Source: Candidatus Omnitrophota bacterium
GTDB taxonomy: Bacteria; Omnitrophota; Omnitrophia; Omnitrophales; Aquincolibacteriaceae
DNA: 64,000 nucleotides
Direction: 5' to 3'
Assembly (NCBI GenBank): GCA_023247055.1
Contig: JAHFHF010000007.1
Span: 2,186-66,185, forward strand
Part shown: piece by piece, positions 9,666 through 58,246 of the stretch
Numbering within the stretch: position 1 is the first letter of the stretch
Layout: each line of letters opens with the position of its first letter
Notes under the pieces: generated by a model
What the model saw: the letters and a program-made list of their open reading frames with translations, nothing else
The model's database searches: none
What the model was told of the DNA's origin: nothing
Program-made: the position numbers and the translations under genes

Positions 9666-9812
9666 AGTCGTGAGTCGTTAGTCTTGAGTTGTGAGACAAT
9701 AAAAAATTTAAAACCCACCGAACTGTTAATCGTGAATGATGAGTAAAACCGTAAAAAAATAAGGCCTCACGCTTTCAACGCTTTACTCAAGACCCATCCC
9801 TCAAGACTCACG
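9666..9812. repeat. intergenic cassette flanked by inverted arms of GTGAGTC-type tandem 6-7-mers
   Basis: Left arm AGTCGTGAGTCGTTAGTCTTGAGTTGTGAG (9666..9696). Right arm ACTCAAGACCCATCCCTCAAGACTCACGACT (9781..9812), its imperfect reverse complement. About 85 nt of unique sequence between them. Confidence 0.75.
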
Positions 9813-9818
9813 ACTGTT

Positions 9819-10691
9819 TTAAGGTATGACTTTATTAAGCGGATATTCCACGATGCCGGATGCGCCGGCTTTTTTCAATGCCGGAATGATTTCACGGACG
9901 ACAGCTTCATCGACGACCGTATCAATGTCATACCAGCCTTTTTGCGAAAGGCCGGAAATCGTAGGGGTTTTAAGCGCCGGGAGAATGGCCAAAACTTTTT
10001 TCAGATCTTTTTCAGCCACGTTCATTTTCAGGCCAACTTTTTCCTGGGCCCGGATAGCCCCTTCCAGCAGAAGGACAAGATTGTCCATTTTCCTTTTCTT
10101 CCATGCATCCTTATAGCTTTGTTTATTTGCGATGAATTTTGGAACCGAGGTGAGCAGAGTGTCCAGGATACGAAGATTATTCGCCCGTAAACTGGAGCCG
10201 GTCTCGGTCGCTTCGACAATGGCATCCGCCAGCTTCGGCGGTTTGACTTCCGTGGCGCCCCAGGAAAATTCGACTTCCGCCGTGACTTTGTGCTGCTTGA
10301 GGTAGCGCTTCGTGACTTCCATCAGTTCCGTAGAGATTTTCTTGCCGTTCAGGTCTTTGACACTCTTAAATGGCGAATCGTTGTGGACCGCCAGAACCCA
10401 GCGCACGGGATTGCTGGAGACTTTCGAGTATTTCAACTCGCAAAGTTCGACGACATCCGAGTCGTTCTCAACAATCCAGTCATGGCCGGTCAGGCCGCAG
10501 TCTACGACGCCATCTTCGATATAACGCGGCATTTCCTGGGGCCGAAAAAGGACGATTTCGAGTTCTTTATCATCAACGGTCGGAAAATAAGAACGCGAAC
10601 TGATGTTAATGTTGAAACCGGCACGCTTGAATAAGTTGCAGGTGGCTTCTTGCAGGCTGCCTTTGGGAAGAGCTATTTTGAGAGTCGCCAT
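9819..10691 (-). CDS. hisG: ATP phosphoribosyltransferase, long form with C-terminal regulatory domain
   Basis: [15 protein letters not shown]... HisG N-terminus plus a C-terminal HisG_C-like region. Start set at the internal ATG (10691). Confidence 0.85.
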
Positions 10692-10798
10692 AGGGTTCGG
10701 GATTCTATCTTTTTGCTTGTGGGGTGTCAATGGCGCCCTTTATACTTGCCTCTAAGGGACAGCATGTTTACCCGCCGCGTTCGCCATGACTGCTTCGG

Positions 10799-11584: not shown

Positions 11585-11593
11585 CGCGACACG

Positions 11594-11693
11594 CCCCCCC
11601 CTCTTAATCTCCCCCCGAAAAGCACGGGGGGAGAAATAAAATATTAAGACAACTTTATTGTTTCCTCCCCCGTGCTTTCCGAGGGAGGACTAA
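11594..11693. repeat. C-rich palindromic repeat, family B copy 1, between the convergent ZIP-transporter and tsaD genes
   Basis: CCCCTCTTAATCTCCCCCCGAAAAGCACGGGGGGAGAAATAAAA ... TTTCCTCCCCCGTGCTTTCCGAGGGAGGACTAA. Two hairpins (TCTCCCCCC/GGGGGGAGA and TCCTCCC/GGGAGGA) that are mutually inverse. Confidence 0.8.
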
Positions 11694-11720
11694 GGTGGGG
11701 GGGGATAAACTAGCCCGACG

Positions 11721-12749
11721 TTATGCACTAATTTTGAGATTCGGATTGGCCGCAAGGTTAAGGCTGGATTTTTTTCCGCTCTGAAAACATTCCCAGCCGC
11801 GGCAGGCAATCATGGCCGCATTGTCCCCTGAGAGCGGCAAGGGCGAAAGCCAAAGTTTGACCCCGGCTGCAGCGGTTTCTTGCGCCATACGCGCGCGCAA
11901 ATGCGAATTGGCGCTGACGCCTCCCCCGACGGCGACATGCCCCGCTTTTTTAAGCTGCACGGCATCCATAGTTTTTTCTACAAGCCAGCTAATGGCGTGA
12001 CGCTGGAAGCTTGCGGCCACATCGCGGCGTAATTGTTCTTCATCTTGTTCGTTCCAGCCTGCGCGGCTTCTGGCTTTTTGCACATGGTAAAGCACGGCGG
12101 TCTTGATGCCGCTGTAGCTGAAACCAAACCGGTTTTTTTGTTTGGGCTTGGTGAAAGCAACGGCGTCTGGATTGCCCTCTTTGGCCAGGCGGTCCAGCAC
12201 CGGCCCCCCGGGGAAACCCAGTCCGAGGATTTTGGCGACCTTGTCATAGGCTTCGCCCACCGCATCATCGACGGTTTCGCCCAGCACCTCGATTTTTTTT
12301 CGCCGGTGATGCGTAATCATCGTATGTCCGCCGGAAACCAGCAGACCGATAAATTCCGCCGCGCGTTTAGCGCCGCTCTCAGGCACCATGAAACAGGCTG
12401 AGAGATGCGCTTCAAGGTGATTGACCCCCATCAAGGGAATCTTCAGGCGATAGCTCAAGGCTTTGCCGAAACAGACGCCGACGAGCAGCGAGCCGATGAG
12501 TCCCGGGCCTGCGGTGACGGCCACTAAATCCAAGTCCGCCGGCTTTACTCCGGCTTGCTTGAGGGCCTGCTCAAAAACAAAATCAACCTGTTCCAGCGAA
12601 TGGCGCGAAGCAATCTCAGGCACGACGCCGCCGAAGGGCTGGTGTTTGAACAAGCTGGAGGAAATGATGTTAGAGCGGATTTTGAAACCATTTTCGACCA
12701 CGGCGGCCGAAGTTTCATCGCAGGAAGTTTCAAGACCGAGAGTGAGCAT
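11721..12749 (-). CDS. tsaD: tRNA N6-adenosine threonylcarbamoyltransferase
   Basis: MLTLGLETSCDETSAAVV... Kae1/TsaD N-terminus, metal-binding His pair (GVNHLEAH), and a conserved C-terminal region. Start at the internal ATG 12749. Confidence 0.9.
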   Translation of the reverse strand: MLTLGLETSCDETSAAVVENGFKIRSNIISSSLFKHQPFGGVVPEIASRHSLEQVDFVFEQALKQAGVKPADLDLVAVTAGPGLIGSLLVGVCFGKALSYRLKIPLMGVNHLEAHLSACFMVPESGAKRAAEFIGLLVSGGHTMITHHRRKKIEVLGETVDDAVGEAYDKVAKILGLGFPGGPVLDRLAKEGNPDAVAFTKPKQKNRFGFSYSGIKTAVLYHVQKARSRAGWNEQDEEQLRRDVAASFQRHAISWLVEKTMDAVQLKKAGHVAVGGGVSANSHLRARMAQETAAAGVKLWLSPLPLSGDNAAMIACRGWECFQSGKKSSLNLAANPNLKISA

Positions 12750-12775
12750 GAATAAGCACCGAGCACCGGGCACCG

Positions 12776-12873
12776 GGCACCGAGCTGTAAAAAAACTTAA
12801 ACGTCACAACAATAATTGACTCGATGACGCCGCGTATTTTTTCGGTGCTCGGTGCTTTGTGCTAGGTGCTAAT
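12776..12873. repeat. intergenic cassette flanked by inverted arms of GCACCG(A/G) tandem 6-mers
   Basis: AGCACCGAGCACCGGGCACCGGGCACCGAGC ... CGGTGCTCGGTGCTTTGTGCTAGGTGCT. Confidence 0.75.
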
Positions 12874-14337
12874 TTTTAATTTTTTCTCAAGAATTTCATT
12901 AACCATTTTGGGATTTGCCTTGCCCTTGGTTTCTTTCATGACTTGGCCGACTAAGAATCCAAGCGCCTGCTGTTTGCCGGCGCGAAAATCCTCAACCGAT
13001 TTGGGATTGGCGGCAAGGGCTTTGTCCACGGCTTCTTCGATCTGCTTTGTGTCCGTCACTTGCACCAGGCCTTTTTCTTTGACAATCGCCTCGGCGGACT
13101 TGCCAGTTTCAAACATTTCAGGCAGGACGTCTTTAGCGATTTTACCGCTGATGGTGTTGTTTTCGATTAAACGCACTAGGCCGGCAAGATCTGCGGGTTT
13201 GACCGGAGAATTTTCAATGGAGATTTTTTTAGAGTTCAAAAGAGCAAGCAGCTCCGATTGAATCCAATTGCTGGTCAGCTTTGCGCCAGCTTTTTCTTTG
13301 ATCGCGGCCTCAAAGTAATTGGCCAGTTTCCTATCCTGCACAAGCGTATAAGCGTCATAAGGAGACAGCCCGTGATCGCGGATCAAACGCTTGGCGCGGT
13401 CTGCAGGCAGTTCCGGTAGGGTCGCGCGGATTTTCTCCACCGATTCGCGTGAAAGCGTAAACGGCACAAGATCCGGTTCGGGAAAATAGCGGTAATCATG
13501 GGCTTCTTCCTTAGAACGCATCAGAAACGTCTGGCCTTTATCGTCGTTCCAGAGCCGTGTTTCCTGAGAAATTTTTTCGCCGCTTTCGAGGACTTTCGTA
13601 TGGCGTTCCACCTCGTATTGAATGGCTTTTTGCACGGCCTTAAAAGAATTGAGGTTTTTAATTTCCACGCGCGTGCCGAATTTCGCTTCACCCTTGGGAC
13701 GGATAGACACGTTGGCATCGCAGCGCAAGCTGCCCTCTTCCATATTGCAATCGCTGACTTCCAGGTATTCCAGCACGGCTTTCAGCGCTAAAAGATACGC
13801 ATAAGCTTCTTCGGGTGAGCGCAGATCGGGCTCGGAAACAATTTCGAGGAGTGGAATGCCGCCGCGGTTGTAGTCCACCAAACTGCCGTCTTTGACACCC
13901 TCATGTACCAGCTTGCCCGCATCCTCTTCAAGATGCGCGCGCGTAATGCCGATCCGTTTTTCTTCCAGGCTGCCGTCCGCACGTTTGAGGTCAATCAACA
14001 GATGCCCGCCTTTATTGACTGGCATGTCGAATTGGGAAATCTGATACGCCTTGGGCAAATCGGGATAAAAATAATTTTTCCGGTCAAACTTCAAACGCTC
14101 CGCAATTTCAGCATTCAGGGCAAGGCCCGTTTTAACAGCAAACTTCAGGGCCTGTTCGTTGAGCACAGGCAGCGAACCCGGCCACCCCAAACACACGGGG
14201 CATGTGTTGCGGTTGGGCTCGGAACCAAAAGTGGTCGGGCAAGCGCAGAACAATTTGGACTTGGTGTCCAATTGCACGTGCACTTCAAGACCGATAACCG
14301 TCTCGTAATTAGTCGTGAGTCGTGAGTTGTCAGTCAT
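12862..14337 (-). CDS. gatB: aspartyl/glutamyl-tRNA(Asn/Gln) amidotransferase subunit B
   Basis: YETVIGLEVHVQL GatB N-terminus and a C-terminal GatB/YqeY domain. The first 10 codons lie in a GTCGTGAGT tandem-repeat block. Confidence 0.9.
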   Translation of the reverse strand: MTDNSRLTTNYETVIGLEVHVQLDTKSKLFCACPTTFGSEPNRNTCPVCLGWPGSLPVLNEQALKFAVKTGLALNAEIAERLKFDRKNYFYPDLPKAYQISQFDMPVNKGGHLLIDLKRADGSLEEKRIGITRAHLEEDAGKLVHEGVKDGSLVDYNRGGIPLLEIVSEPDLRSPEEAYAYLLALKAVLEYLEVSDCNMEEGSLRCDANVSIRPKGEAKFGTRVEIKNLNSFKAVQKAIQYEVERHTKVLESGEKISQETRLWNDDKGQTFLMRSKEEAHDYRYFPEPDLVPFTLSRESVEKIRATLPELPADRAKRLIRDHGLSPYDAYTLVQDRKLANYFEAAIKEKAGAKLTSNWIQSELLALLNSKKISIENSPVKPADLAGLVRLIENNTISGKIAKDVLPEMFETGKSAEAIVKEKGLVQVTDTKQIEEAVDKALAANPKSVEDFRAGKQQALGFLVGQVMKETKGKANPKMVNEILEKKLKIST

Positions 14338-14809
14338 GAGTTTAATTATCAGTCTTCAGTTGTGAGTCGTGAGTCTCGAGTTTCGAGTTTTGTGATATCA
14401 ATTTTGAATTAGCAGCAATATTTATTTTTTTTAAAAGAGCCTGCGTCATCTTGCAAATTTCTTCATTCTTGAATAGCAGTTCGTTATAGCAAGCAGGCGC
14501 GATATAGCCTAACCGCCGTGCGACGTCCAACTGCGTTTCAATTTCCCCCAATGATCCCAAAGCGATAGATAAAAACTGACGGTACTCTTTAAAATGCTTT
14601 CTGCGGAATCCTTCCGCAATATTGCACGGAACTGAAACTGCAGCACGACGCATTTGAACTATCAGTCCGAATTGTTCATCCCGCGGAAACGCTTTTGTAA
14701 CCTGATAAATCTCCTCAACAAACGCGATCCCTTTTTGCCAGATCACCAAATCTCTAAAACTTTTTATCTTTTCACTCAAGACTCATCCCTCACGACTCAT
14801 GACAAAATA
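14311..14809. repeat. GTGAGTC-type inverted-arm cassette enclosing the four-helix-bundle protein gene between gatA and gatB
   Basis: Blocks TAGTCGTGAGTCGTGAGTTGTCAGTCATGAG (14311..14340) and GTCTTCAGTTGTGAGTCGTGAGTCTCGAGTTTCGAGT (14350..14395) oppose CACTCAAGACTCATCCCTCACGACTCATGAC (14771..14809). Confidence 0.75.
14342..14779 (-). CDS. four-helix-bundle protein (23S rRNA intervening-sequence protein family)
   Basis: KSFRDLVIWQKGIAFVEEIY...AAVSVPCNIAEGFRRKHFKEYRQFLSIALGSLGEIETQLDVARRLGY matches the TIGR02436/PF05635 family. TTG start at 14779 with SD GAGGGA. C-terminal 25 codons read through the flanking repeat block. Confidence 0.75.
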   Translation of the reverse strand: MSEKIKSFRDLVIWQKGIAFVEEIYQVTKAFPRDEQFGLIVQMRRAAVSVPCNIAEGFRRKHFKEYRQFLSIALGSLGEIETQLDVARRLGYIAPACYNELLFKNEEICKMTQALLKKINIAANSKLISQNSKLETHDSQLKTDN

Positions 14810-18336: not shown

Positions 18337-21300
18337 TTAAGCGGAGATCGCAACCGCGAACTGATTGAGGAAATCGGCGGCAAGACGCGCGAGTGATTCT
18401 GAAATCACATACAGGCCGTTCTCACGCCGGATGGCCCAGCGAATGCCCGGCGCATCCGGGTCGTAACTCAAGGCCGCAGCCAACGTACCGGCACGTTCAC
18501 GCAGCAAACGAAACATGCGGATATTTTTTTGGGCCGGCCTGCTAAACCCGCTTTCATCCGAATTGGAAGCCCGTGTAAAGGCCACCACACGTCCTTCTTT
18601 CAACCTTGGGCTTAAGGCTTGATAGGCTTCTTCAGCGCTGCTTGCCGTCCAACTTACATTCGTAAAACCCCGAAACAATCGTTTAAACCGCAGCAGGCTT
18701 GAGTGGCTGCTGCGTGCGTTAAAAATCACAAAGCGCACCGCGCTGCGCTGTTTCATCACAATGACAGCCTCACGAATTTGTTCATCCGACAGCGCAGCCA
18801 GATCATCTAAACTCAATAGTGCTGTCTTCGCGGCATGCACGGGCTGGTTCCAAAATGTCAATTGTTGGGGTTGTGTGCCACGCTGGCTGCCCGGCAACCG
18901 GGGATTTAACTCCGCAAGCGATGCACTCGCAGATTTTGAATGTTTCTGCGTTCTGCGCAATTCGGCGCGTACAACCCAAGACCGTTCAAAGCGATTCAAG
19001 AGTTGGGCACTTTGAAAATGGAGGCGCTCAAGATCTGTTTTAATTTGGCTTAATTTTTTAAGATCCTCCGCTGAAAATAGCGCCTGACGCGAGGCCGTTA
19101 AAGCCGCATCGGACAAAGGCCGTGCCACACTCGCAGACGAAAAGAAGGCCTGTTCGTGATACTGATTCAGCGGTGATTTTTCAATCGTCTCGATCACCTG
19201 AATCGTCGCCCATAATTCCATGACTGTGTTCCTCAGCTGATTCCAAGACATATCTCGCCCATGGTCATGCCACGGTTTAAAAATGGCTACCAGCCCTTGA
19301 GAAAGCGTCTTCCAAAACGCAAGATTTTTTTCCTTTTCAGCATACTGTCCCGGCAGCAGTTCTTCGGACATCGTGCGTCTTTCGCGGACAATCAATTCGG
19401 ATGCAGCCGCGAGAATATCGAGCAGGGTATTCTTGGCTTCTTCGGAGGAGAGACGCGGATTTTGCGATGCAAGGCTTTCTTTGACTGTGGTACTTAAAGC
19501 AAACTCATATGGACCGTCCGCACCGGCCGTAGTTTGAAATCCATACTGTTCTAAGAGTTCCTGCGCTTTGGCCGGTGTACCGCCACTGTACTCTGCCAAC
19601 GGACGGATAGAGACCTGCTCACGCACGGCCGCTGCTTGCAAAATACGGCCTTTCAAACGGCGTTCCCTTTCAAAGTCTTTTTTCCACGCGTCATCCGCCG
19701 CTCTTTCATCCTCAAAAAACGCTCTCTGAAGAACGCGCACTTCGGACCGCTGCGCAGGATCACTCTGACCACGCCGGGTTTCTGCATCCACAATGCGAAG
19801 TTGTATTTTTAATAAAGTTCTCGCTTTAAATACGCCGTAGAGGATGCCGGGAATAAGGCCCAGCAATCCCGAAAGATGAGAACCCAGTGGTGCAGGAATC
19901 AGTCCCGCTCGCGCAAGTAGGATGCCAGCCGTTTCAACAATACCCGACGGCATTATAATCAATAGTGCGACGCTAAGCAGAAACATGAACCACCAACGCG
20001 CCCCAAAGCTTTCTCTTAGAAGCTCCCGCTTGGCTTCAAAGGATTCGGCGCTGATCGTGGGTTTCTTCTTCGCAAGAGCAGCATTCCAATGCCCCATTTC
20101 GAACATCGCTTCAAATTCGGTCGCCATATTTAAACCTGAATTCTTAAACTTTGTGACCGATTTTTGAAACTCTTCAAGATAGGCCCAGAGAATCCTGTTA
20201 TATACACCTTCGAAATCGATCTTCTCCGGTTCGGGAGAGGCCGAAGAGGGAGAAACCGTGCGTACTTCGGAGCGCTGGTGACGATAATCCAAAGGTACGT
20301 CGCGGCCCAACTCCATCAGCTGGCCTTTGGCCTGGGCGCGCAATTCCTGAAGGAAGGACTTGGGCAGGCTGTGCTCAACACGCTTGTGACGATAGTAATG
20401 CGCCAAAGGGTAAAGCAGCGCCACGGCGATGAACATACCGCCCAAGGCAATCCCAATATTCGCGAGCCTGAAATTGACCATGGCTTTGCCTGCGATAAAA
20501 ACGGCCGCGGCCGTTATGCCTAGGGTGGGAAGCAGCATCCGTTTTTCAAAAGTTTTTTGCGCTTGGTTGATCCGGTCAAGATTCCGGTTGGCATTATCCA
20601 GCATATCCAGCAGTTCGCTCTCGCGCTTTTCCTGAACGAGCTGCAAGACCGTCCGGCGGATTTCGTCAAACTGGGCTTCCGGGTTCGCCAAGACAGGCAT
20701 GTGCTCCATGGCATCAAAAGCCGGGGGCAAATCCAGCCGGAGCATTTGCGGACTAGCCTGATCATCCTGATGATTCAGCCAATAAGCGTATCCCACAAGA
20801 ACCGCCAGCGCCGCATATCCCGCAACCTGCGCCATCATGGCATACTTAGCGTCAAGGAATTGCAGACATAACGCAATTAAATAAACGAACAAAGCCGCCA
20901 TCATGGCCAGAACAAGACCTGTGGGATAATACTCCTCAAAAAAATCCCAAAACCCAGCCCGGCCGGATTGAATTTTATCCAAGTCTTTCAAGGCTGCTTC
21001 CAAAGAGGCCTTCTGGGTTTTGTCCCGCTCAAGAAGATGTATCCTTTTCCGGCCAAACGCGCTTGTGTTGACGCTCAAACTTTGCTGCACAGCCTGAAGC
21101 GCCAATTCGATTTTATAACGGGCAGTCAAAAAATAACGGTGGTCAAGATCTTGAAGCGCGCTCTTCAGAAGGTCTTTATTACCGCGCTGGGCATAGCTGT
21201 CATAAAAAACGGAAAAAAGCCGGGCTTGGAGGCTGATAAAATAAGGATTCCATTTGAGCCAGCGCCGGCTCAGCGAAGGGTATTCTTTTTGCAAATCTTT

Positions 21301-24300
21301 CCAGGCCTGAAACTGGACAAGCCAGAAAATTTTAGGCACTGGAGCATCCGGCCCGGCCGAGGCGGGCTCGCCGGCCGCATTTTGCTGCTGATGTTCTTCG
21401 GCTTCAACCGCATTTTGAATGGTTTCCAGCAAGCGCGCTAAATCCATTTTCTTCGGATTGGAATTAACGTAAAAAAAATATTTTCTGGAATCTTCACGCG
21501 TCTCGATCTCATGCAGATAAAATCCCGTGCTCCGCCAGCCGGCGACACTCTTCTGCGCGATCCTATCGATAGTTTCTCGGGCCTCATCCGACGCAGCGTC
21601 AGTGTATTCTTCATGCCACATGGCCGTAAACTCGGCATCGTTGAGAGGCCCGAAACGCACCTCGTGCTTGAGCCCATCGTTTTGTTTTAAAGCTTTCAGC
21701 GTCTCGTTGACCCGCCTAAGCAAAATCGCCGTTGTGTCCTGCGTTTCTGTTTGAGACGTCTCTTTCAGCGGATAGCGCGCCTCAAGCCGGCGCCAGGATT
21801 CAAATTCCTCCAGCCAAGCATTGTCGATATTGCGATGCAAAACCGACTTCATATCCTGCAAAATGCCGTTCCAGGGTATCTGAGAATATCGCGCGTCAAC
21901 AAAATAAAGATGTTTAAACTTAGCGTCCCGGAAGCCTGTTGCAGCAGAGGACTCAATGCGTTCATAAAGAGGACTGCGCAGATACGTGGCATTCAGGAAA
22001 CCTTTTTCACGCAACTCCTGATTGAGATGCCTCCCGCTGCTAGCTTGCAAGGGGGCAATTATCTCCTGCCAACGGGGATCTTGCGTAGTCAGAACTGTCA
22101 ATTCATGGAGATAGGGCAGAAAATCCGATTTAATTCCCGCTAAAACACGGTTGACGTCCACCGTAAAGGTCTCGATCTCCGCATGGCTGACGCGAACTTC
22201 GGAACGTCCAGTTCCGAAGTCGTCTGCCTGCACTTCGGAGAGGCTTGGCATAATCCATTTATTTTGTGAAAAATAATAAATATATTGACTAATAAGCATT
22301 CCTACGATATCCTGCCCACTGATCAAACCTTGATGGAGCGCCGCTATGGAAAACAATTCTGATCTCTCAGCCAAATGGGCTTTTGCGGCCAAGAGCCTTA
22401 TGACCTTTGCCCAAATTTTGACAACCGGAGCATTGGCAACAAAGCTTTTTAGTGAGCTCCCAATACCCTGGAGAATGGCCGTCGCCATTGGAGTTTTTTT
22501 GTTGATTATCGTAGCTATCCTGATATATCCTGCCGGTACAAAGGAACCCAATTGATATGGAAATCCCCATTCTTCTTTCTGTGATGGCCATCGGTATTTA
22601 TATCTGGTACCTGATTGATCAACACCAGATGAAAAAACGAAAGCAGTCTCACTAATTCCAAATGTATCCAGAAATTTTAATCGCCGTGATGGTGCCCTTT
22701 TTAGGAGCTTTTGTCTGGTATCTGATTGATCAGAACCGAATGCGAAAACGGAAACAGCCGCATTAATTTTTTTCTTTTTTAGCCCTTCCCGCATTTCTGA
22801 ACGCATGGCTGGCATAGCCGCTTGCTCCTGTAACAACCGTTCTACGGCGGCGGCATAATCCTGCACGGCCTTGGGCACATCCGGATTTTCGATAGGCGAT
22901 TTACTCAGGCTGCCGGCCATGCCGCGTCCACCGGCCTCCTCATAGCCCTGCGCCCTCAAATCTTGCCAGAAAGGCTCCGATAAATTTAAAAAGCGGCCGT
23001 CAGCATCCATAAACGTACGGATTTTGAATAAACGCGCAGGTCTCCCCGATCTCGGCGCAGCCGCCTTGACGGGCGTCGATACCACGATGGCTGAAATGCC
23101 CCTGAGCAAATCGGGCCGTTCCGAGCTCAGATATTGATAGGCCGAGGAACTCCAAACTTCTTTGGCTTCGTCATCAGGCACATAAAAGAAAAGCACGGGT
23201 CCGGCTTTACGCACCGTGCCTTGAGGCAGTCCCGGCACATCGAAACCGCCGCGCTGAATCATTTTTGCAATTACTTCGCGGTTTGTAAAATCACGCTGCG
23301 CGCCCCGGGCAAATAAATCGGCCATTTCCGGATCATCCGCTTGCAGGCGTCCCCTCTGGATGGCTTCATAAAGCCCGGCGGCGGAATAGGTCTTTCCTAG
23401 TTGCAACCCAAAGAACAGCGCGGAGCGGACTTTACGAATACCCTCCTCATAGGCCCATTCACCGGCAACTACTTTTTCTTCGATGGCTAAGAGGGTATTG
23501 TAAAAAATGAGCATGGTGTTCTGAGACTCTGCGTCCTGCGGCATCATTAGGTAGTCATTGAAAAGGGCAGCATTCGATAAAATCGAATGATGCGTCCGGA
23601 GAAATGCCGCATCGCCGGCATGCTCCATCACGAAATGCGAAAGCAGGATATCGGCATCGGCGTGGTCCATCAGCGCAAAAGAACGTTCCTGCAGTTTCTG
23701 AATTAAGGCGGTTTCATGATGCGCATGCAGGTAAAGCAGAAAATCGATCAAAAGCACCGTAGTGCTGATGGAGGCAAGCACGGGAAAATCATAATGATGG
23801 TCGATATGAAAAAGCCCGGGGTTTACTTTTAATCTGCCTAAAAAATCGCGAAACAATGTTTCGCGTTCTGCGGGAGTCAAAACTTGATACGGTTTATCGC
23901 GTAATGAAGCCGGCGTCCGCAGATTCACAATGTTGGATTCTCCCATCAAGGGATTTTTTGGGTTAAAATCCTGGATCCGCAGAATGCGTTGTTGGCCAAT
24001 ATCTCTGTGCTGTTCAAAGTAATCAAAAAGCATTTTAAAAACCCGGTCAGCCTGCGGAATTTTTTTGCGGCTGGCATAGAAGTATTTTGGAGTCAACTCC
24101 ACGCGCGCTGCCGGCGGCAAAATCATACTCAAACGGGCCTGCAACTCATCCAGCGGCAGGTCCGGTTCAGCAGCAAGTTCCTCTAATTGAACAAACATCT
24201 CTCTGGCGAGCCGCCGGACACGCGCCCCTTCCAGCCGGTCCATGTCTCGATGGGCGTGGTCAGCCGCTTCACGAATGCCGGTCCGCAGCATTTCAATTTC

Positions 24301-45676: not shown

Positions 45677-45682
45677 AAATAG

Positions 45683-45868
45683 CAATGAGCAACGAGTGGC
45701 GAGCAATGAGTCAGTAAGCAGCAAACTCTGAGTATGCATAAAACTGGAAGAGATTCATGCCACAATTTTTACTAGTACCTACTGGAATTATAAAATCACC
45801 GGAACACGTTTCTTTGGTGCGGGCTGGGTTTCTCCCCTCATTACTCATTGCTCATTGCTCGTTGCTGT
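45683..45868. repeat. intergenic cassette flanked by inverted arms of GCAATGA-type tandem 7-mers, upstream of birA
   Basis: AGCAATGAGCAACGAGTGGCGAGCAATGAGTCAGTAAGC ... CATTACTCATTGCTCATTGCTCGTTGCT. The centre contains TTACTA ... TATAAAAT, promoter-like. Confidence 0.7.
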
Positions 45869-47623: not shown

Positions 47624-49309
<1,686 letters not shown>

Positions 49310-49338
49310 GATCACTCAAACATTTAAATTTTTAATTC

Positions 49339-49425: not shown

Positions 49426-49446
49426 CCAAAAAGGGAGATTCAAATC

Positions 49447-49737: not shown

Positions 49738-49747
49738 CCCTTTTTTC

Positions 49748-49863
49748 TTTGTCATTGCGAGCCCATCAAAGTTTGAAGGGCGAAGCAATCTTGGTTTTTT
49801 AGATTGCCGCGTCGTCCGCTAATAAAGAAGCGGACCCTGCTGCTGCAGGTCGCAATGACAAAA
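49748..49863. repeat. family A palindromic element, copy 4, between groES and groEL2
   Basis: TTTGTCATTGCGAGCCC...GGCGAAGCAATCTTGG...GGTCGCAATGACAAAA. Confidence 0.8.
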
Positions 49864-49891
49864 TGAAAAAAAGAATTTAAATTTAACGTAA

Positions 49892-51535
<1,644 letters not shown>

Positions 51536-51584
51536 TTAGTCGTGAGTCATGAGTCGTGGGTCTTGAGTAAAAAGCAGTAAGTAC

Positions 51585-51627
51585 AAAAAGCCCTGATATC
51601 CTTTGTTGGATGTCAGGGCTTTTTTAT
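51585..51627. terminator. bidirectional rho-independent terminator between groEL2 and the convergent rRNA methyltransferase gene
   Basis: AAAAAGCCCTGATATC - loop CTTTGTTG - GATGTCAGGGCTTTTT gives a 16-bp stem with one mismatch, an A-run before and a T-run after. Confidence 0.7.
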
Positions 51628-51631
51628 TCAC

Positions 51632-51720
51632 TTTGTCATTCTGAACGGACAGAGAACAATTTAAATGTCGCGAAGAATCTCCGAACAATCTGAGATCCTT
51701 CGCTGCGCTCAGGATGACCC
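51632..51720. repeat. family A-prime palindromic element, downstream of groEL2
   Basis: TTTGTCATTCTGAACGG...CGCGAAGAATCTCCGAACAATCTGAGATCCTTCGC...CTCAGGATGAC. Confidence 0.7.
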
Positions 51721-51773
51721 TAAAAAAACGTCATTCGGGACAGGCTATTTTTTTCCTGCCTTAAACTCATGGC

Positions 51774-52724
51774 TCACGACTCAAGACTCACGACTTTTTT
51801 AATCTTCGCTGCAAAGAAACCTTCCATCAGACCGTCGGGTAAAATACGCAGGGATTTCTGGACGGCGGGATGAAAGGTTTTCTTGCCCCATGCGGCAAGG
51901 CCATCCATGCGGTTCGCGAAAGTCACTTCCGCAGGCAGGATTTCAAGGTCGCTGAATTTTTCAAGCGCCCATTCCAGAATGCCTTCGTTTTCTTCCGGAG
52001 CAAAGGTGCAGGTTGAATAAACCAACGTGCCGCCTGGCTTTAAAGCCTGCCAGGCCGAATAAAAAAGCATCTTTTGGCGCGGCACTAGACTTTTGATTTT
52101 GGCAGTTTTCCAGCCTGCGAAACTTTCCGGATCCGATAAATGAAACCGTCCCTCGCCGCCGCAGGGCGCATCCAACAGCACCCGGTCAAACTCGCCGGCC
52201 CTTTTGCGGCCTAGGTTTTCTCCTTTGGCCACCGAGTAATCCACATTCCGAACGCCTAGGGCTTCGAGATTGGCTTTCATTTTGAAAAACCGCGCACGGC
52301 TGACATCATTGGCCACAATGCGCCCCTGGTTCTGCATGCAGCCTGCTATTTGCCCGGTTTTACTGCCCGGCGCAGCAGTCAAGTCGAGAACGGCCTCCCC
52401 TGCCTGGGGTGCAAGCAATAGCACGGGCACCATGCTGGACAGTTCCTGCACGTAAATCAATCCTTCACGGTAGGCGGCGGTATTCTGCAGTTCCCGTAAT
52501 GTTCCCCGTGTCAGGATGAAAGCCTGGTCATACCAGGGCACTGGACGCAGTTCAAAGGTCTGAGCCGGAAGCGCCTTGCAGACAGTTTGAATGCTCCCTT
52601 TAATCCGGTTAACGCGAAAGGTGACGGGCCGGGCGGTCTGAAAAGACTGCAGGGCCGTTTCCAAAAATGCGGCAGGCAGGATTTTCTGCAGCCGCTCGAG
52701 AAAGGGCTCAGGGAGAGTTGGCAT
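51774..52724 (-). CDS. RsmB/RsmF-like (NOP2/Sun family) rRNA cytosine-C5 methyltransferase
   Basis: SAM-binding DLTAAPGSKT, catalytic DAPCGGEG (motif IV ProCys) and TCT (motif VI). Start probably at the internal ATG 52724. Confidence 0.75.
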   Translation of the reverse strand: MPTLPEPFLERLQKILPAAFLETALQSFQTARPVTFRVNRIKGSIQTVCKALPAQTFELRPVPWYDQAFILTRGTLRELQNTAAYREGLIYVQELSSMVPVLLLAPQAGEAVLDLTAAPGSKTGQIAGCMQNQGRIVANDVSRARFFKMKANLEALGVRNVDYSVAKGENLGRKRAGEFDRVLLDAPCGGEGRFHLSDPESFAGWKTAKIKSLVPRQKMLFYSAWQALKPGGTLVYSTCTFAPEENEGILEWALEKFSDLEILPAEVTFANRMDGLAAWGKKTFHPAVQKSLRILPDGLMEGFFAAKIKKVVSLES

Positions 52725-55603: not shown

Positions 55604-57172
55604 ATGAATAAAAAAGTTTACCTCTTGTCAGCCGTTCTGGCTTTGTCTGCAGGGCTCTGTTTTTATCTGCGCCTTTCCTTCGGCGGTCAGACTATCCGGC
55701 CCGAATTTGACCGCAAACTTTGGCGCATCGAGATCGGCATGAATGTCTCCGGCAAAGGCGAGCGCGCCAAAGTTCGCCTGACCCTGCCTAAAGATACCGA
55801 ACGCCAGACGGTCTATAATGAAAACTTTGAAAACGACGCCATGTCGTTTACGATCACCGAAAACGAGCGCACCAAAAACCGTATCGGCGTCTGGCAGATC
55901 GAAATCCTCGACGGCACTAAGAACCTCAAGTACACGCTTTCGGCCCAGCTTAAAAGCCAGACCTTTATCATTCCCCCGGATCTGACCCTGTCTCCTTTTC
56001 CAAGGGACAACGCGCCCCCCGAATTCCGTGTCTGGCTGGATCCGTCAGCCTATATTCAATCGGACAACAAAACCATCCGGCGCTACTTGAAAAAGGCCCT
56101 TGGCCGCGAGAAAAATGTGGACCGCGTCATGCACAGGCTCTTTGATTTCGTACGCGGCCAGGTCAATTATAAGACCACCAAGAAAAGCAAGGATGCTATT
56201 GAAACCCTAAAATCTTTAACAGCCGCTTGCGGCGGTCAAGCGCGGGCCTTAGCGGCTTTAAGCCGGGCCGCGGGCATTCCCTCGCGCGTAGTCGGAGGGT
56301 TGATTCTGGAGCCGGGTGTTAAGCAAATCACCCATGTCTGGGTTGAAAATTACATCGACGGCAAGTGGATCCCGTTTGATACGGTCAACAACCATTTCGC
56401 TTTTATTCCTGAGCACTATCTCGAACTTTATTGGGGCGATGTGGCTTTACTGCGCCACGTGGGGCTTTCCAAAATCGACTATTACTTCAACGTGGGTTAT
56501 GAAACCATGCCGCCGGTGGACCAGCCTTGGTCGCTTTATGTCATTCCGGTGCACTTTCACAATCTGACGAAGACCACCTTGCTGATCCCTATCGGCGCCC
56601 TGCTCGTGGCTATTTCACGCCTGATCATCGGCATCCCCACGTTCGGAACCTTCGGCCCCGTGCTGCTGGCCATTGCCTTTCAGGAAGTCTCGCTTGGGCC
56701 CGGCTTACTTTTTGTGTTCATAGTACTCAGCCTCAACTTGATGGTGCGCCGCCTGCTGGATTCTTTAAAAATCCTGATTATTCCCAAATTGGCAATCTTG
56801 GTCACCATGGTCGTCATTATTCTCATCAGCATTATGATGATCAGCGTCCAACTCGGCGAGAGGCGCATGCTCTATGTCTCAGTTTTTCCCATCATCATCA
56901 TGACCTGGATGACCGAGCGTTTCGCCGTGCTCCAAATCGAAGACGGCACCTTGGCCGCCCTCAAATCGTCTTTAGGCACAGTTTTTGTAGCCTGCTTGAC
57001 GTATTACACCATGGAACTTTCATTCCTGAAGGTTTACCTTTTTGCTTTTCCGGAATTGCTCCTGCTCAATATTGCGCTGCTGCTTCTACTCGGGCGCTAT
57101 ACCGGCATCCGCATCACCGAATTGCAGCGCTTCCGCGATTTACACAAAATCCACACCGCCAAGAAGCCATGA
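55604..57172 (+). CDS. transglutaminase-like domain protein fused to a C-terminal seven-TM module
   Basis: Signal anchor, then a transglutaminase core with Cys (TAACGGQARALAALSRAAGIPSRVV), His (THVWVENYIDGKW) and Asp (IPFD). At least seven hydrophobic helices occupy the last about 220 aa. Stop overlaps the next gene start (ATGA). Confidence 0.75.
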   Translation: MNKKVYLLSAVLALSAGLCFYLRLSFGGQTIRPEFDRKLWRIEIGMNVSGKGERAKVRLTLPKDTERQTVYNENFENDAMSFTITENERTKNRIGVWQIEILDGTKNLKYTLSAQLKSQTFIIPPDLTLSPFPRDNAPPEFRVWLDPSAYIQSDNKTIRRYLKKALGREKNVDRVMHRLFDFVRGQVNYKTTKKSKDAIETLKSLTAACGGQARALAALSRAAGIPSRVVGGLILEPGVKQITHVWVENYIDGKWIPFDTVNNHFAFIPEHYLELYWGDVALLRHVGLSKIDYYFNVGYETMPPVDQPWSLYVIPVHFHNLTKTTLLIPIGALLVAISRLIIGIPTFGTFGPVLLAIAFQEVSLGPGLLFVFIVLSLNLMVRRLLDSLKILIIPKLAILVTMVVIILISIMMISVQLGERRMLYVSVFPIIIMTWMTERFAVLQIEDGTLAALKSSLGTVFVACLTYYTMELSFLKVYLFAFPELLLLNIALLLLLGRYTGIRITELQRFRDLHKIHTAKKP

Positions 57173-58113
57173 GTTTTTTTCATCCTTTCCGCGACAACGG
57201 CATCCTCGGCATGAACCGCAGGAATGCCGATTACATCTTGAATTACAACCGCCGAAAATTTTATCCGCTGGTCGACGACAAACTCAAAACCAAGCAGCTG
57301 CTTGAAGAAAATGGCCTGCCCACGCCGGTGCTCTATTTTGAATTCCGCTATGAATTTGAATTGCGTTATATCCGCGAAATCAGACATCTAAAAAAATTCG
57401 CTATCAAACCCGCGCGCGGCGCTGAAGGCCGCGGCATTCTGGTCATCGCCGATAAATCGGACAAGGGCTGGCTAACGACAAGCGGCGAACTTTTGACGGC
57501 CGATGATATCGAATACCACGTTTCAAATATTCTGGCAGGACTTTATTCCCTCTCCGGCGTCGACGACCATGCTTTTATCGAATATTTCGTGCAGAGCCAT
57601 CCGGTCTTTCAGCCGTTTACTAAAAAAGGCGTGCCGGACATCCGTGTCATTCTCTACCGCGGCATACCGGTCATGTCGATGCTGCGCCTGCCCACGATCC
57701 AATCCAAAGGCAAGGCGAATCTGCATCAGGGAGCGGTGGGGGCGGGTGTCGATATGCTCAAAGGCATTACACTCGGCGGCGTGCATAAAAACCAACTTGT
57801 TGAAAAACATCCGGACACGCAAGCTGCGATTGCCGGGCATCAGATTCCCTTTTGGAATTACATCTTGGAAACTGCGGCAAAAACGCATGAGATTTTCAAA
57901 CTCGGCTATTTTGGCATCGACTTTGTCATCGACCGCCAGCTTGGCCCGCTCATTCTCGAACTCAATGCCCGTCCCGGCTTGAGCATTCAACTCGCCAACC
58001 GCCATGGCCTGCTGCCCCGACTCGCTGCTGTGGATCAACACAAGAACGTCGAATCCCTGCCCTACACTGACCGCCTGCAAATCGCAAAAGATATCCTGCG
58101 CCACGACCGCTAG
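57169..58113 (+). CDS. alpha-L-glutamate ligase-like (RimK-related) ATP-grasp amidoligase
   Basis: 314 aa from ATG 57169 (MSFFHPFRDNGILGMNRRN...). ATP-grasp motifs: KPARGAEGRGI, FIEYFV, and ILELNARPGLSIQ (Mg/ATP-binding E-x-N). The ORF-track N-terminal extension from 56527 overlaps the previous gene in another frame. Confidence 0.75.
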   Translation: MSFFHPFRDNGILGMNRRNADYILNYNRRKFYPLVDDKLKTKQLLEENGLPTPVLYFEFRYEFELRYIREIRHLKKFAIKPARGAEGRGILVIADKSDKGWLTTSGELLTADDIEYHVSNILAGLYSLSGVDDHAFIEYFVQSHPVFQPFTKKGVPDIRVILYRGIPVMSMLRLPTIQSKGKANLHQGAVGAGVDMLKGITLGGVHKNQLVEKHPDTQAAIAGHQIPFWNYILETAAKTHEIFKLGYFGIDFVIDRQLGPLILELNARPGLSIQLANRHGLLPRLAAVDQHKNVESLPYTDRLQIAKDILRHDR

Positions 58114-58117
58114 AAGA

Positions 58118-58246
58118 AACTCGTGATGAGCGGTGATGAGTGATTGGTGACTGGTGATTAGTGGCTGATAAAAGGAGCCGCTACGCGGCATTAAATGTCA
58201 CGCAGTGACACATCCACCAATCACTAATCACCAGTCACTAATCACT
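58118..58246. repeat. intergenic cassette flanked by inverted arms of GTGATGA/TGATTAG tandem 7-mers, between convergent genes
   Basis: GTGATGAGCGGTGATGAGTGATTGGTGACTGGTGATTAGTG ... CACCAATCACTAATCACCAGTCACTAATCAC. Centre contains GTCACGCAGTGAC. Confidence 0.75.

Follow-up and report, generated by a model that had tools for sequence, protein, structure and literature searches.

The window analyzed here, a 64-kb (64,000-nucleotide) stretch of a Candidatus Omnitrophota contig, carries seven inverted-repeat cassettes (A to G) set among genes that include hisG, tsaD, gatB, gatA, alr, groEL2, and birA-like and rsmB-like genes. Six of these loci had been described in an initial annotation as a family of constant architecture; all six were confirmed as genuine, and one further cassette (G) was found at 34576-34681. 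In each, some five imperfect heptamers in tandem make up the 5′ arm, and the 3′ arm is the reverse complement of that array; complementarity between the arms is 73-87% across the seven. Six cassettes are intergenic and G alone lies within an open reading frame (6/7 versus 1/7), and only C has an ORF in its loop, the other six being gene-less. Arm coordinates and percentages of Watson-Crick pairs, given first for A, B, D, E, and F, come from ungapped alignment of the arms.

9666..9695, A 5′ arm: AGTCGTG family, five AG cores at 7-nt spacing (Tandem Repeats Finder period 7, 4.3 copies)
9786..9815, A 3′ arm: hisG stop (9819) 3 nt beyond its end; arm pair 73% Watson-Crick, loop 90 nt
12751..12783, B 5′ arm: unit GAGCACC; 2 nt separate it from the minus-strand start codon of tsaD (12747-12749)
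12842..12874, B 3′ arm: gatB stop codon (12862-12864) inside; arm pair 82% Watson-Crick, loop 58 nt
45681..45710, D 5′ arm: unit GAGCAAT, five AG cores, begins 5 nt past the alr stop
45837..45866, D 3′ arm: ends about 8 nt ahead of the birA-like ATG (45874); arm pair 77% Watson-Crick, loop 126 nt
51538..51580, E 5′ arm: AGTCGTG family, heptamers at 51538-51568, begins 3 nt past the groEL2 stop
51585..51624, plus strand, terminator-like hairpin enclosed in the E loop: 17 pairs and a T-run
51753..51795, E 3′ arm: heptamers at 51765-51795, holds the rsmB-like stop (51774-51776, minus strand); arm pair 81% Watson-Crick, loop 172 nt
58133..58167, F 5′ arm: unit TAGTGAT/TGGTGAC, 20 nt past the stop of an ATP-grasp gene
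58211..58245, F 3′ arm: 7 nt from the pseudouridine synthase stop (58252, minus strand); arm pair 83% Watson-Crick, loop 43 nt

Every named locus contains period-7 arrays of 4.1-5.6 copies by Tandem Repeats Finder, and an inverted-repeat search pairs these arrays over 24-43 nt at 73-96% complementarity. The period is 7 at all arms and never 6, which corrects the unit of 6-7 nt initially given, and the loops of the seven cassettes span 43-432 nt instead of 45-380 nt. In minimum-free-energy folds of either strand, both arms of each cassette pair together, with fold z-scores of -2.4 to -11.8 against dinucleotide shuffles. A purpose-built detector, which calls a period-7 array with a reverse-complement partner at most 1.2 kb away, returned precisely seven cassettes and 13 arrays from the window, compared with means of 0.0 cassettes and 0.2 arrays in ten locally shuffled windows; the arms are thus complementary beyond shuffled expectation. 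The 7-nt units follow one another directly in two arrays of opposite orientation, with no CRISPR-type alternation, in agreement with the initial annotation. Five unit families occur in the 64 kb (GAGTCGT three times, GAGCACC, GAGCAAT, TAGTGAT, and AAGTTGG), so the earlier statement that units differ between loci holds in part, but A, C, and E share one family (AGTCGTG) and irregularities. The terminator-like element reported after groEL2 is indeed enclosed by E, while the promoter-like sequence proposed ahead of birA in D has a 9/12 match, no better than chance. A general role as intrinsic terminators or attenuators, also suggested earlier, was rejected on the basis of the loop sizes and of the T-runs, which follow the 3′ arm in just 5 of 49 related cassettes.

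In the set of related cassettes associated with four-helix-bundle genes, the arm units have a short conserved core: position 3 is G in all 48 units and position 2 is A in 42 of the 48, with an information content of 4.52 bits compared with at most 3.76 bits in controls. All 48 have a single polarity, and G exceeds C in the 5′ arm of 47 cassettes versus 4. Read on either strand, the layout is 5′-(YAGNNNN)n ... (NNNNCTR)n-3′, with a (Y/R)-A-G core and four variable positions. Within the window, the polarity rule holds for 7/7 cassettes by eye and for 4/7 by an automated check for ORF-less cassettes, and 8 of the 15 window arms contain five AG/YAG cores. Arms match unit by unit at 54.5%, falling to 13.4% when slid by one unit, so the arm co-variation anticipated for a concertedly evolving stem does exist, but G.U and A.C mismatches in the stems number 48 and 47 and give no sign of selection on an RNA stem. 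Because the two mismatch classes are equal, the mirrored arms look like the product of DNA-level mirror copying and not of RNA-level stem selection.

Cassette C lies between gatA and gatB and has the following parts:

14306..14341, outer left arm: AGTCGTG family, with the gatB start codon (14335-14337, minus strand) inside and the stop of the enclosed gene located at it
14342..14779, minus strand, gene for a 145-aa four-helix-bundle (4HB) protein: TTG start inside the right arm; PF05635 23S_rRNA_IVP / TIGR02436
14346..14399, second, inner heptamer array: codes for the 4HB protein's C-terminal tail
14774..14809, right arm: gatA stop (14797-14799) and 4HB TTG start both inside

The outer arms of C, 36 nt long, 78% Watson-Crick and separated by a loop of 432 nt, pair in the minimum-free-energy fold of both strands, and the right arm could instead pair with the inner array. 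The element is 504 nt long, measured between the outer ends of its arms. The gatB start within its left arm gives a nine-residue N-terminal extension that is missing in relatives. The overlap of cassettes with start and stop codons, pointed out initially, is borne out here (gatB start, gatA stop, 4HB start and stop) as well as in B (gatB stop) and E (rsmB-like stop). The enclosed gene is the four-helix-bundle gene that the initial annotation had recognized, and its product belongs to PF05635 (Pfam E=1e-38, 132 bits, cut-off 33.8) and NCBIfam TIGR02436 (E=4e-36, 123 bits, cut-off 24) and is homologous to PDB 2GSC (XCC0516; E=3e-23). Matches to bAvd (PF22296, E=1.5e-7) and to the Avd model of diversity-generating retroelements (DGRs; NF033474, E=6e-6) are weak and under the curated cut-offs; with these scores and no reverse transcriptase domain in the window ORFs, a DGR was rejected. 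Eleven residues are invariant in a 27-sequence alignment of the 4HB family, which argues that the protein is functional. The gatA-gatB gap is 460 nt here versus 0-12 nt in eight related genomes (L004-L007, L010, L013, L014, and L017): cassette C has been inserted where related Omnitrophota have the two genes closely packed. Rfam detected no rRNA in the window, and C sits between gatA and gatB, not in helix 25 or 45 of 23S rRNA.

Cassette G is the one found inside a coding region, an ORF of 7954 aa that reads through it in frame:

34547..34564, left copy of an 18-nt direct repeat, TGGCGCATCTCAGAGCGC, flanking G: encodes RSEMR on the minus strand
34576..34605, G left arm: unit AAGTTGG, within ORF 18337..42201 (minus strand)
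34652..34681, G right arm: located by tandem-repeat and inverted-repeat searches and arm alignment; arm pair 87% Watson-Crick, loop 46 nt
34685..34702, right copy of the 18-nt direct repeat

Direct flank repeats of this length occur at cassette G only. Its position in a coding region, where RNase III cleavage would be harmful, speaks against the reading of the cassette stems as RNase III substrates.

The same design surrounds 4HB genes elsewhere. Among 80 metagenomic 4HB genes, 53 lie between inverted period-7 arrays and 65 have a period-7 array next to them, and array density is 3.57/kb beside the 4HB gene versus 0.19/kb elsewhere. The enrichment is at period 7, with a smaller excess at period 8 and none at other periods. 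Enclosed 4HB genes in cultured organisms include those of Nostoc punctiforme, Calothrix, Anabaena sp. 90, and Riemerella; the Nostocales examples are 4HB genes on plasmids, enclosed by heptamer arrays, and in Xanthomonas campestris a GGGAATC array overlaps the start of XCC0516, adjoining bccP. The modal number of cores is five in both arms (22 and 21 of 80 loci), arrays of 10-39 units also occur, and in many cassettes the two arms differ in copy number. Hairpin cassettes with mirrored arms of 7-base repeats are a widespread and poorly described class whose typical cargo is a 4HB gene; the 23S rRNA intervening sequence (IVS) is its best-known member. Since four conserved 23S rRNA motifs and one 16S motif were found near 0 of the 80 related loci, the link to the rRNA IVS rests on the protein family and on the Coxiella description.

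Cassettes of this class move between genomic contexts. In the pair L086 and L092, the proteins are 69% identical and the arms near-identical, while flanks of 1.1-2.4 kb are unrelated, and homology begins and ends at the outer arm ends; five more pairs are likewise homologous within unrelated flanks. Unit similarity correlates with protein similarity (Mantel r=0.13, p=0.001). Within the window, the right arm of A is nearer to the right arm of C (92% identical over 26 nt, including the irregular CATCCCTCA) than to its own partner arm (73%). The arm starts of A and E (TTAGTCGTGAGTC) are common to the gene-bearing C, and A additionally has the arm irregularities of C. The other four cassettes (B, D, F, and G) have unique units and cannot be linked to a 4HB-bearing master within the window. 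No target-site duplication was seen in 49 related cassettes, whose longest flank repeats equal the permuted null. Domain scans of about 29 larger ORFs found no transposase, reverse transcriptase, or nuclease in the cassettes or window, and inspection of the arms by eye found no GTAG/CGTC tag. Together with the insertion of C relative to eight genomes, the homologues in unrelated flanks in other metagenomes lend weight to the initial suggestion of a mobile or self-propagating class.

The reading that we consider probable, though well short of certain, is that the seven loci represent one class of small, discrete, mobile IVS-type hairpin cassettes whose stems are probable RNase III substrates. 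The full-length form carries a single gene, for a pentameric 4HB protein (PF05635, a homologue of the DGR protein Avd), and C is such an element, with A and E as gene-less relatives of the same arm family and B, D, F, and G as gene-less cassettes with other units. Cassettes would land at gene boundaries and seldom in frame within a gene, and would be co-transcribed with their hosts. The stem of about 30 bp would form double-stranded RNA expected to be cut by RNase III, releasing the insert from the host transcript as happens with the homologous IVS in 23S rRNA. The Coxiella 23S IVS, with an S23p ORF, a 28-bp terminal stem, and tandem GACAGAT heptamers, is cut by RNase III in vitro, and RNase III excision of IVSs has been shown for Coxiella, Salmonella, and Leptospira (PMC4990558). 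Because this homologous element is RNase III-cut, we infer RNase III processing of the cassette stems as the best mechanism, and such release would explain why insertions are tolerated in operons. Slippage would let array length drift, while a DNA-level process would keep the arms as unit-by-unit mirror copies.

TRAP binds (G/U)AG repeats, and the arms may likewise be protein-binding arrays, a pentameric 4HB ring engaging the five YAG cores of one arm, one per subunit. The target would be single-stranded RNA or DNA, binding would compete with hairpin formation, and the cassettes, with or without a gene, would form a regulon through which the 4HB protein controls RNA processing or the translation of a gene starting a few bases past the 3′ arm. 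The trinucleotide YAG core, variable spacers, and fixed period of 7 are consistent with this, as are the 3′ arms that often stop 5-15 nt short of the next ribosome-binding site or ATG and the functional protein implied by the invariant residues. The modal five cores per arm would match the five chains in each of the crystal entries 2GSC and 2RLD and the homopentameric toroid described for the Coxiella protein (PMC4990558), but that mode equally fits a minimal stem of about 30 bp, and the longer arrays of 10-39 units count against the binding model. Binding by PF05635 proteins is a conjecture, the constancy of spacers within an array is not required for it, and the movement of cassettes between contexts is left unexplained, so we regard this account as unlikely.

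We also think it improbable that nothing moves, with slippage growing heptamers at pre-existing intergenic hairpins, selection for a long RNA stem (for processing, stability, or cistron insulation) keeping the arms complementary, and 4HB genes simply preferring, or being tolerated in, such loops. In many bacteria, no long simple-sequence repeat is as over-represented as the heptameric kind, and slippage tied to the polymerase footprint has been proposed (PMC4679880, PMC4692102). Array copy number differs among Coxiella strains (PMC4990558), just as it does between the arms of many cassettes here, and the lack of target duplications would be expected. Orthologous junctions also bear hairpins with differing units (gatB-tsaD here and in L005, gatA-gatB here and in L009). 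In-situ growth, however, does not account for entire cassettes, arms included, being homologous across unrelated contexts, or for the irregularities common to A and C; a YAG core of invariant polarity across phyla is unexpected from slippage on arbitrary local sequence, and the G.U excess that RNA selection would leave is absent.

At a few bases the arms run into the first or last codons of the genes beside them, and G is translated in frame, but an origin of the arms in heptad-like constraints on neighboring coding sequence, or in random inverted repeats, deserves practically no credence, being refuted by the absence of cassettes in shuffles, the fold z-scores, and the same design at 53 of 80 unrelated 4HB genes, with arms nearly all intergenic and a period not divisible by 3.

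Among known systems, the Avd protein of DGRs is of the same fold family as the window 4HB protein, but the reverse transcriptase and the template/variable repeat pair of a DGR are absent from the window. MITEs and REPINs (REP doublets mobilized by RAYTs) resemble the cassettes as short, gene-less intergenic hairpins in many copies, with a gene-bearing form related to the gene-less forms, and REPINs also leave no target duplication. They differ in that no transposase or RAYT is found among the roughly 29 larger ORFs scanned, a comparison covering only window DNA, in that the cassette arms are microsatellites whose sequence varies between family members, and in that nothing is carried apart from a small helical protein, which has no known catalytic motif.

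The links to heptamer repeats in Xanthomonas and cyanobacteria, and to the 23S rRNA IVS/S23p family, were absent from the initial annotation. Cyanobacterial STRR sequences (Calothrix, Anabaena, Nostoc) and the TAACTGA repeats of Beggiatoaceae are intergenic tandem heptamers that often end just upstream of start codons (PMC4679880), and by our reading of the published units, CAGTNNN is a rotation of the STRR units CCCCAGT and CAACAGT as well as of TAACTGA in its complement. Most accounts of these repeats treat them as direct repeats used in fingerprinting or suggest a part in regulating translation (PMC4679880), and these descriptions do not include an inverted-pair architecture or 4HB cargo. 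The GGGAATC arrays of Xanthomonas (Rehm et al. 2015, PMC4692102) are intergenic, of period 7 and about four units, form 70-75 convergent inverted pairs per genome, and lie against start and stop codons as well as at operon junctions, groES-groEL among them; one overlaps the start of the gene for the crystallized 4HB protein, a gene link that the paper does not mention. Close convergent pairs of opposite-strand arrays are present in the window too, with the polarity of the 4HB-associated set. In Xanthomonas, one G-rich unit dominates each genome and the arrays were read as G-quadruplexes (PMC4692102), whereas at least five unit families occur in 64 kb here and most window units cannot form G-quadruplexes.

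The closest counterpart is the 23S rRNA IVS with an S23p/PF05635 ORF, found in Leptospira, Coxiella burnetii, and others. The window cassettes differ in lying at mRNA gene junctions, with one inside an ORF, in that six of the seven are ORF-less, and in that RNase III excision, known for the rRNA IVS, is only presumed for them. In common are the protein family in the C loop, terminal inverted repeats forming stems of about 28-36 bp, and a similar size (428-444 nt for the Coxiella IVS and 504 nt for C; PMC4990558). The Coxiella stem also contains tandem heptamers, whose GACAGAT unit rotates to CAGATGA and so carries the YAG core (PMC4990558), and IVS elements have long been suspected of being mobile.

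Tandem Repeats Finder reported arrays of period 7, with 4.1-5.6 copies, at each of the six intergenic loci of the initial annotation, which had put the repeat unit at 6-7 nt, and recovered an extra period-7 pair missing from its list. The arrays pair up as inverted repeats of 24-43 nt with 73-96% complementarity in a repeat search of the window; aligned over the arms of all seven cassettes, complementarity was 73-87%, with loops of 43-432 nt. A cassette detector set to seek period-7 arrays (15 or more of 21 self-matches) that have a reverse-complementary match no more than 1.2 kb away returned exactly these seven cassettes (13 arrays) from the window, compared with a mean of 0.0 cassettes and 0.2 arrays from 10 locally shuffled windows. 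On both strands of all seven regions, the minimum-free-energy fold joined left arm to right arm, with z-scores of -2.4 to -11.8 against dinucleotide shuffles, so the proposed pairing of the arms holds against shuffled controls. The heptamer cassettes are a real feature of the window, statistically secure and biologically coherent. With minor corrections, the six loci do share the constant architecture first described for them, and cassette G adds a seventh; the claim that each locus has its own unit fails for A, C, and E, which belong to one common family.

Heptamer cassettes of the window
Cassette A, 9666-9815: flanked by the hisG stop and a basic ORF of 32 codons
Cassette B: right arm includes the gatB stop; the tsaD start is 2 nt from the left arm
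Cassette C, 14306-14809: between gatA and gatB
Cassette D: between alr and a birA-like gene
Cassette E, 51538-51795: between convergent genes
Cassette F: between convergent genes
Cassette G, 34576-34605 / 34651-34682: inside a giant ORF

The larger ORFs of the window, a core-genome stretch of a Candidatus Omnitrophota bacterium, are housekeeping genes (ssb, rpsF, pth, prs, glmU-like, clpX, hisG, tsaD, gatCAB, alr, birA-like, coaX, groEL-groES-groEL, rsmB-like, cstA, H+-PPase, and others), and domain searches found no transposase, reverse transcriptase, or nuclease domains among them. Cassettes A-F occupy nearly the whole of their gene junctions, and the described overlap with start or stop codons was seen at B and C. 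Cassettes A, B, C, D, and G lie within co-directional transcription units and must therefore be transcribed. Cassette E begins 3 nt past the second of two chaperonin-60 paralogues arranged around groES (groEL - groES - groEL, 47651-51535); the X. campestris groES-groEL junction likewise bears an inverted heptamer pair (Rehm et al., supplement, PMC4692102). The contig is also present in ENA assembly ERZ27280021, and its closest GatB relatives are 71-76% identical and mostly labelled Omnitrophota MAGs, the others 'uncultured bacterium'. Three further samples of the same contig (L001-L003) are 99.98-100% identical and carry no information on cassette variation.

Cassette C encloses the four-helix-bundle (4HB) gene that the initial annotation had placed in one cassette: its ORF, on the minus strand at 14342-14779, is a match for PF05635, '23S rRNA-intervening sequence protein', at E=1e-38 and for TIGR02436, 'four helix bundle protein', at E=4e-36. 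Its product has only sub-threshold matches to models of Avd, the accessory protein of diversity-generating retroelements (DGRs), and its closest solved structure is 2GSC, X. campestris XCC0516 (E=3e-23). The right arm contains both the stop codon of gatA and the TTG with which the enclosed gene starts, and the left arm contains the gatB ATG, from which GatB carries nine added N-terminal residues (MTDNSRLTT) ahead of the conserved NYETVIGLE; for comparison, GatB of the related genome L009 begins MTNYEPVIGLE. The gatA and gatB matches lie 0-12 nt apart in eight relatives (L004-L007, L010, L013, L014, L017) versus 460 nt here. Judged by this comparison of gene spacing, cassette C is an insertion into the gatA-gatB junction. 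The junction is evidently permissive to insertions; L009 has a gene-less 65-nt heptamer hairpin there with a TAGGGGT-like unit, and L008 and L022 have insertions of other kinds. At the gatB-tsaD junction, occupied by cassette B in the window, L005 has a heptamer hairpin with an unlike unit.

A second heptamer array of cassette C, at 14346-14399 just within the left arm, encodes the C-terminal ~18 residues of the 4HB protein and could replace the outer arm, in which the gatB start codon lies, as partner of the right arm; one pairing may thus preclude the other. In the related Omnitrophota MAG L005 (4482-4725), a G-rich heptamer array lies just 5' of the gatA start and a C-rich array (CCCGCCA x3) ~50 codons into gatA; the possible hairpin would span the gene start.

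We aligned 27 homologues of the 4HB protein and fetched 80 metagenomic loci encoding relatives 40-58% identical. The 4HB gene lay within an inverted period-7 array pair in 53 of the 80 loci (66%), and at least one adjacent period-7 array was present in 65. Period-7 arrays occurred at 3.57/kb within 150 nt of the 4HB gene versus 0.19/kb in the remainder of the same loci; period 8 had a lesser excess (0.46 vs 0.04 per kb), and periods 4-6 and 9-12 had no enrichment near 4HB genes. The ORF fits its loop closely, with the ATG typically 10-50 nt past the 5' arm and the stop typically no more than ~15-20 nt from the start of the 3' arm, which in turn frequently stops 5-15 nt ahead of the following gene's ribosome-binding site or ATG. 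None of the 80 loci has a conserved 23S/16S motif within 2.5 kb, and we rejected a location inside rRNA for these relatives. Cultured organisms likewise have 4HB genes enclosed in cassettes of this design.

4HB cassettes in other bacteria
Nostoc punctiforme pNPUN01: arms (CAGGAGT)n ... (ACTCCTG)n
Calothrix PCC 7716: unit TAGCTGT
Riemerella anatipestifer: unit AAGGTTC
Anabaena sp. 90 plasmid pANA02 (L167), 840-1682: in a type I-D CRISPR-cas operon, with cas6 and cas4 on either side

Ahead of the Anabaena sp. 90 cassette runs a heptamer array of 39 units (274 nt). Nostocales predominate among plasmid-borne 4HB homologues, and it was in these taxa that the cyanobacterial heptanucleotide repeats called STRR were first described. 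A figure legend in PMC10910872 gives '23S rRNA IVP' as statistically associated with CRISPR adaptation modules, an association that the Anabaena cas6-cas4 cassette may explain. Repeat #15 of X. campestris (GGGAATCGGGAGTGGAGAATCGGGAATC) separates bccP (XCC0517) from XCC0516, the gene of the crystallised 4HB protein, and overlaps the start of XCC0516 (Rehm et al. 2015 supplement, PMC4692102).

Gene-less cassettes of the same design are sporadic, occurring at 10 of 80 gatB loci in Nitrospirota, Nitrospinota, Acidobacteriota, Desulfobacterales, and others, some nested 2-3 deep. One nested cassette (L068, 5805-5977) has three concentric layers whose units all differ; a Desulfobacterales locus (L073, 8598-8790 and 11367-11738) has two nested layers, whose two unit families are found again at several sites. 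In two 4HB cassettes, both with TAGTCGT-type arms (L086, 1270-1320; L094, ~244-263), the start is a few bases past a tRNA 3' end (…GGTTCGAATCCGACCGCCGCCA), which hints at a preference for sites beside structured RNA genes.

The arms follow a common pattern despite the variety of units. Phased consensus units of 48 cassettes read Y-A-G-(T>C,G)-(G>T)-(G>T)-N, with the G of position 3 invariant (48/48), the A of position 2 in 42/48, and a pyrimidine in first position in 38/48, and carry 4.52 bits of information versus a mean of 3.48 and a maximum of 3.76 in 20 letter-shuffled controls. When both orientations were permitted, all 48 units picked one polarity, 5'-(YAGNNNN)n ... (NNNNCTR)n-3', which is identical on either strand because the repeat is inverted; the opposite arrangement occurred in 0/48 cassettes. 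Correspondingly, G exceeds C in the 5' arm of 47 cassettes versus 4, with AG at 0.95 per heptamer and CT at 0.18. By eye, all seven window cassettes fit this polarity (GAGTCGT, GAGCACC, GAGCAAT, TAGTGAT, AAGTTGG), and an automated polarity check on ORF-less cassettes scored four of the seven. Five is the commonest count of AG/GG cores spaced at exactly 7 nt, both for 5' arms (22 loci) and for 3' arms (21 loci), and five cores are also found in 8 of 15 window arms; arrays of 10-39 units also occur. Together, the YAG core, the period of 7, and the modal five cores suggest a rival, TRAP-like model, which we think unlikely, in which a pentameric 4HB ring would read five YAG cores.

The co-variation between arms anticipated in the initial annotation is present. 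At 5'-arm positions that deviate from the consensus of their own unit, the partner base is Watson-Crick in 54.5% of cases (108/198), and sliding the partner by one unit drops this to 13.4%. Stem mismatches on the sense strand comprise 48 G.U, 47 A.C, and 87 others, giving no signal of strand-specific RNA selection on the stem, and we rejected that explanation. Since selection on an RNA helix would be expected to leave a wobble excess, the mirror symmetry of the arms looks like the product of a DNA-level copying or repair process, or of recent origin. We likewise rejected the arms as three-frame stop-codon traps, as 21 of 48 5' arm units contain a stop versus 19.7 expected; the excess in 3' arm units (24 vs 12.8 expected) probably just terminates the 4HB ORF.

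Comparison of related cassettes points to the whole cassette as the moving unit. 4HB protein similarity and heptamer-unit similarity have a weak but significant correlation (Mantel r=0.13, p=0.001), and related 4HB proteins often have a unit type in common. In the pair L086/L092, the proteins are 69% identical and the arms near identical, with variant units in the same order; their flanks of 1.1-2.4 kb have no similarity by tblastx, and DNA homology is confined between the outer arm ends. Five further pairs behave alike, with shared flanks in one pair only (L096/L106). No target-site duplication beyond chance was found among 49 related cassettes and those of the window, G excepted, nor any conserved flanks or T-runs after the arms of the 49. 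Homologous cassettes in unrelated flanks, with homology ending at the arm ends, support the mobile hairpin class put forward in the initial annotation; its interpretation is partly supported. The promoter-like sequence it described in D comes down to a single 9-of-12 match versus 0.4 expected, and we rejected it. Growth of the arrays purely in situ by slippage is contradicted by the movement of whole cassettes between contexts, the conserved core, and the fixed polarity.

Relations of this kind also exist within the window. The right arms of A and C are 92% identical over 26 nt, including an irregular CATCCCTCA, and complementarity between the two arms of A is only 73%; A, C, and E have left arms with the same start, TTAGTCGTGAGTC. 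These common features make A and E gene-less relatives of the gene-bearing C, a relation resembling that of MITEs to their parent elements. Matches between window cassettes are limited to the arms, with no loop similarity; the loops of A, B, D, E, F, and G hold no 4HB remnants, and the window has no second 4HB gene (next-best hmmsearch match, E=0.18). At the gathering threshold, the only Rfam family in the window is one tRNA.

Cassette G lies within an ORF of 7954 codons (18337..42201, minus strand) that reads through it without a stop. An exact 18-nt direct repeat, TGGCGCATCTCAGAGCGC, is found on both sides (34547, 34685) and encodes RSEMR on the coding strand. RSEMR occurs seven times in the 7954-aa protein (residues 712, 731, 2154, 2500, 2546, 5351, 6466), including the close pairs 712/731 and 2500/2546, with RSEIR ~15 residues ahead of 2154; as the codons differ, it is a protein-level motif. 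Its recurrence suggests a functional site of a giant Omnitrophota protein, for example one of processing. Of the seven copies, only the two on either side of G are identical in DNA, which points to a recent duplication accompanying the cassette. A protein database search detected no homologues of the 350-aa segment around residue 2500, the site of G.

The window holds several other repeats. Two copies of a ~110-nt palindromic element with C-run and G-run ends (11594-11703 and 18110-18231; …TTAATCTCCCCCCG(A/G)AAAGCACGG(G/A)GGGAGAAATAA…) form a family distinct from the heptamer cassettes. Intergenic palindromes include a 41-nt inverted repeat 3' of the pantothenate kinase gene (47229-47320; CTCTCCCTTTGGGAGAGGGCTGGGGTGAGGGG…) and a perfect 19-bp palindrome between the cstA-like and H+-pyrophosphatase genes (60684-60726; ATCGTAGATAGTGGATCGT / ACGATCCACTATCTACGAT). 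Inverted repeats at 51637-51722, nested in the loop of cassette E, and at 9245-9354 (GTCATTCTGAAC… / …GCTCAGGATGAC; TTTGTCATTGCGAG… / …CTCGCAACGACAAA) resemble short palindromic elements common in uncultivated phyla. A 59-bp unit in 3.1 tandem copies, each with the palindrome GATTTAAAACGTCGGGTTTTAAATC (8159-8343), adjoins the window's only tRNA gene (8093-8163, minus strand). A perfect 81-bp tandem repeat of 2.2 copies (9389-9568) lies beside the highly basic 32-codon ORF (9547-9645, minus strand); here, two aligned blocks in a blastn comparison of L001 (15212-15310) with the window overlap by about one unit, which may be a copy-number difference, L001 being the same contig in the same assembly.

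IVS (intervening sequence) elements that carry S23p ORFs were already known in the 1990s. To our knowledge, the excess of heptamers in bacteria, noted since 2007, has no accepted cause, and PF05635 proteins, annotated in thousands of genomes since the 1990s, have no known function. Over-representation of heptameric repeats in bacteria is already published (PMC4679880, PMC4692102), with inverted GGGAATC pairs catalogued in Xanthomonas at 70-75 per genome (PMC4692102) and TAACTGA repeats described from Beggiatoaceae and cyanobacteria (PMC4679880). Among open-access full texts, and allowing for an earlier description elsewhere, the only link between heptamers and the S23p/4HB family was a Coxiella study of one element. 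The window cassettes are further members of this class, known but poorly described, in a new phylum and in mRNA instead of rRNA contexts. The 4HB association (66% enclosure), the YAG core, the fixed polarity, the five-core mode, and the movement of whole cassettes without target duplication appear to be absent from the searchable literature.

The window, and more fully the 80 related loci, tie PF05635 genes to heptameric repeats in a typical arrangement: a 4HB gene in a hairpin loop, heptamer arms with a YAG core, fixed polarity, and about five cores, the whole moving as a unit. Cassettes interrupt core operons (gatCAB here, accBC in Xanthomonas, cas operons in Anabaena), and lend start and stop codons to their neighbours, affecting gene calling and operon models. 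A more far-reaching reading, which we think improbable, makes 4HB protein and heptamer arms the two halves of a single, unrecognised genetic system across many bacterial phyla, in which a pentameric ring reads five YAG cores and the protein serves as a mobility factor or as a trans-acting regulator of every genomic cassette. Avd, a 4HB homologue, recruits reverse transcriptase in DGRs, and one possible route of mobility within this two-halves reading would be recruitment of reverse transcriptase by the 4HB protein to RNase III-excised RNA. If true, it would explain the function of the '23S rRNA IVS protein' and the bacterial heptamer excess together; the link between heptamers and 4HB genes makes both questions open to experiment.

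We hold with moderate confidence that the cassettes are mobile IVS-type hairpins, RNA-processed, whose arms, microsatellites of heptamers, keep their mirror symmetry at the DNA level. Given stems of ~30 bp, predicted duplex energies of -28 to -56 kcal/mol, and the transcription of A-D and G, RNase III cleavage would be the most economical expectation by analogy with the Coxiella IVS, and a cut at the insert that the rRNA or operon survives would allow such insertions to be tolerated. The 23S rRNA IVS of Coxiella burnetii is the closest experimentally studied relative of the window cassettes: its parts are an S23p ORF, a terminal stem of 28 bp, and 3-4 tandem GACAGAT heptamers whose number differs between strains, and RNase III excises it in vitro by cuts within the stem (PMC4990558).
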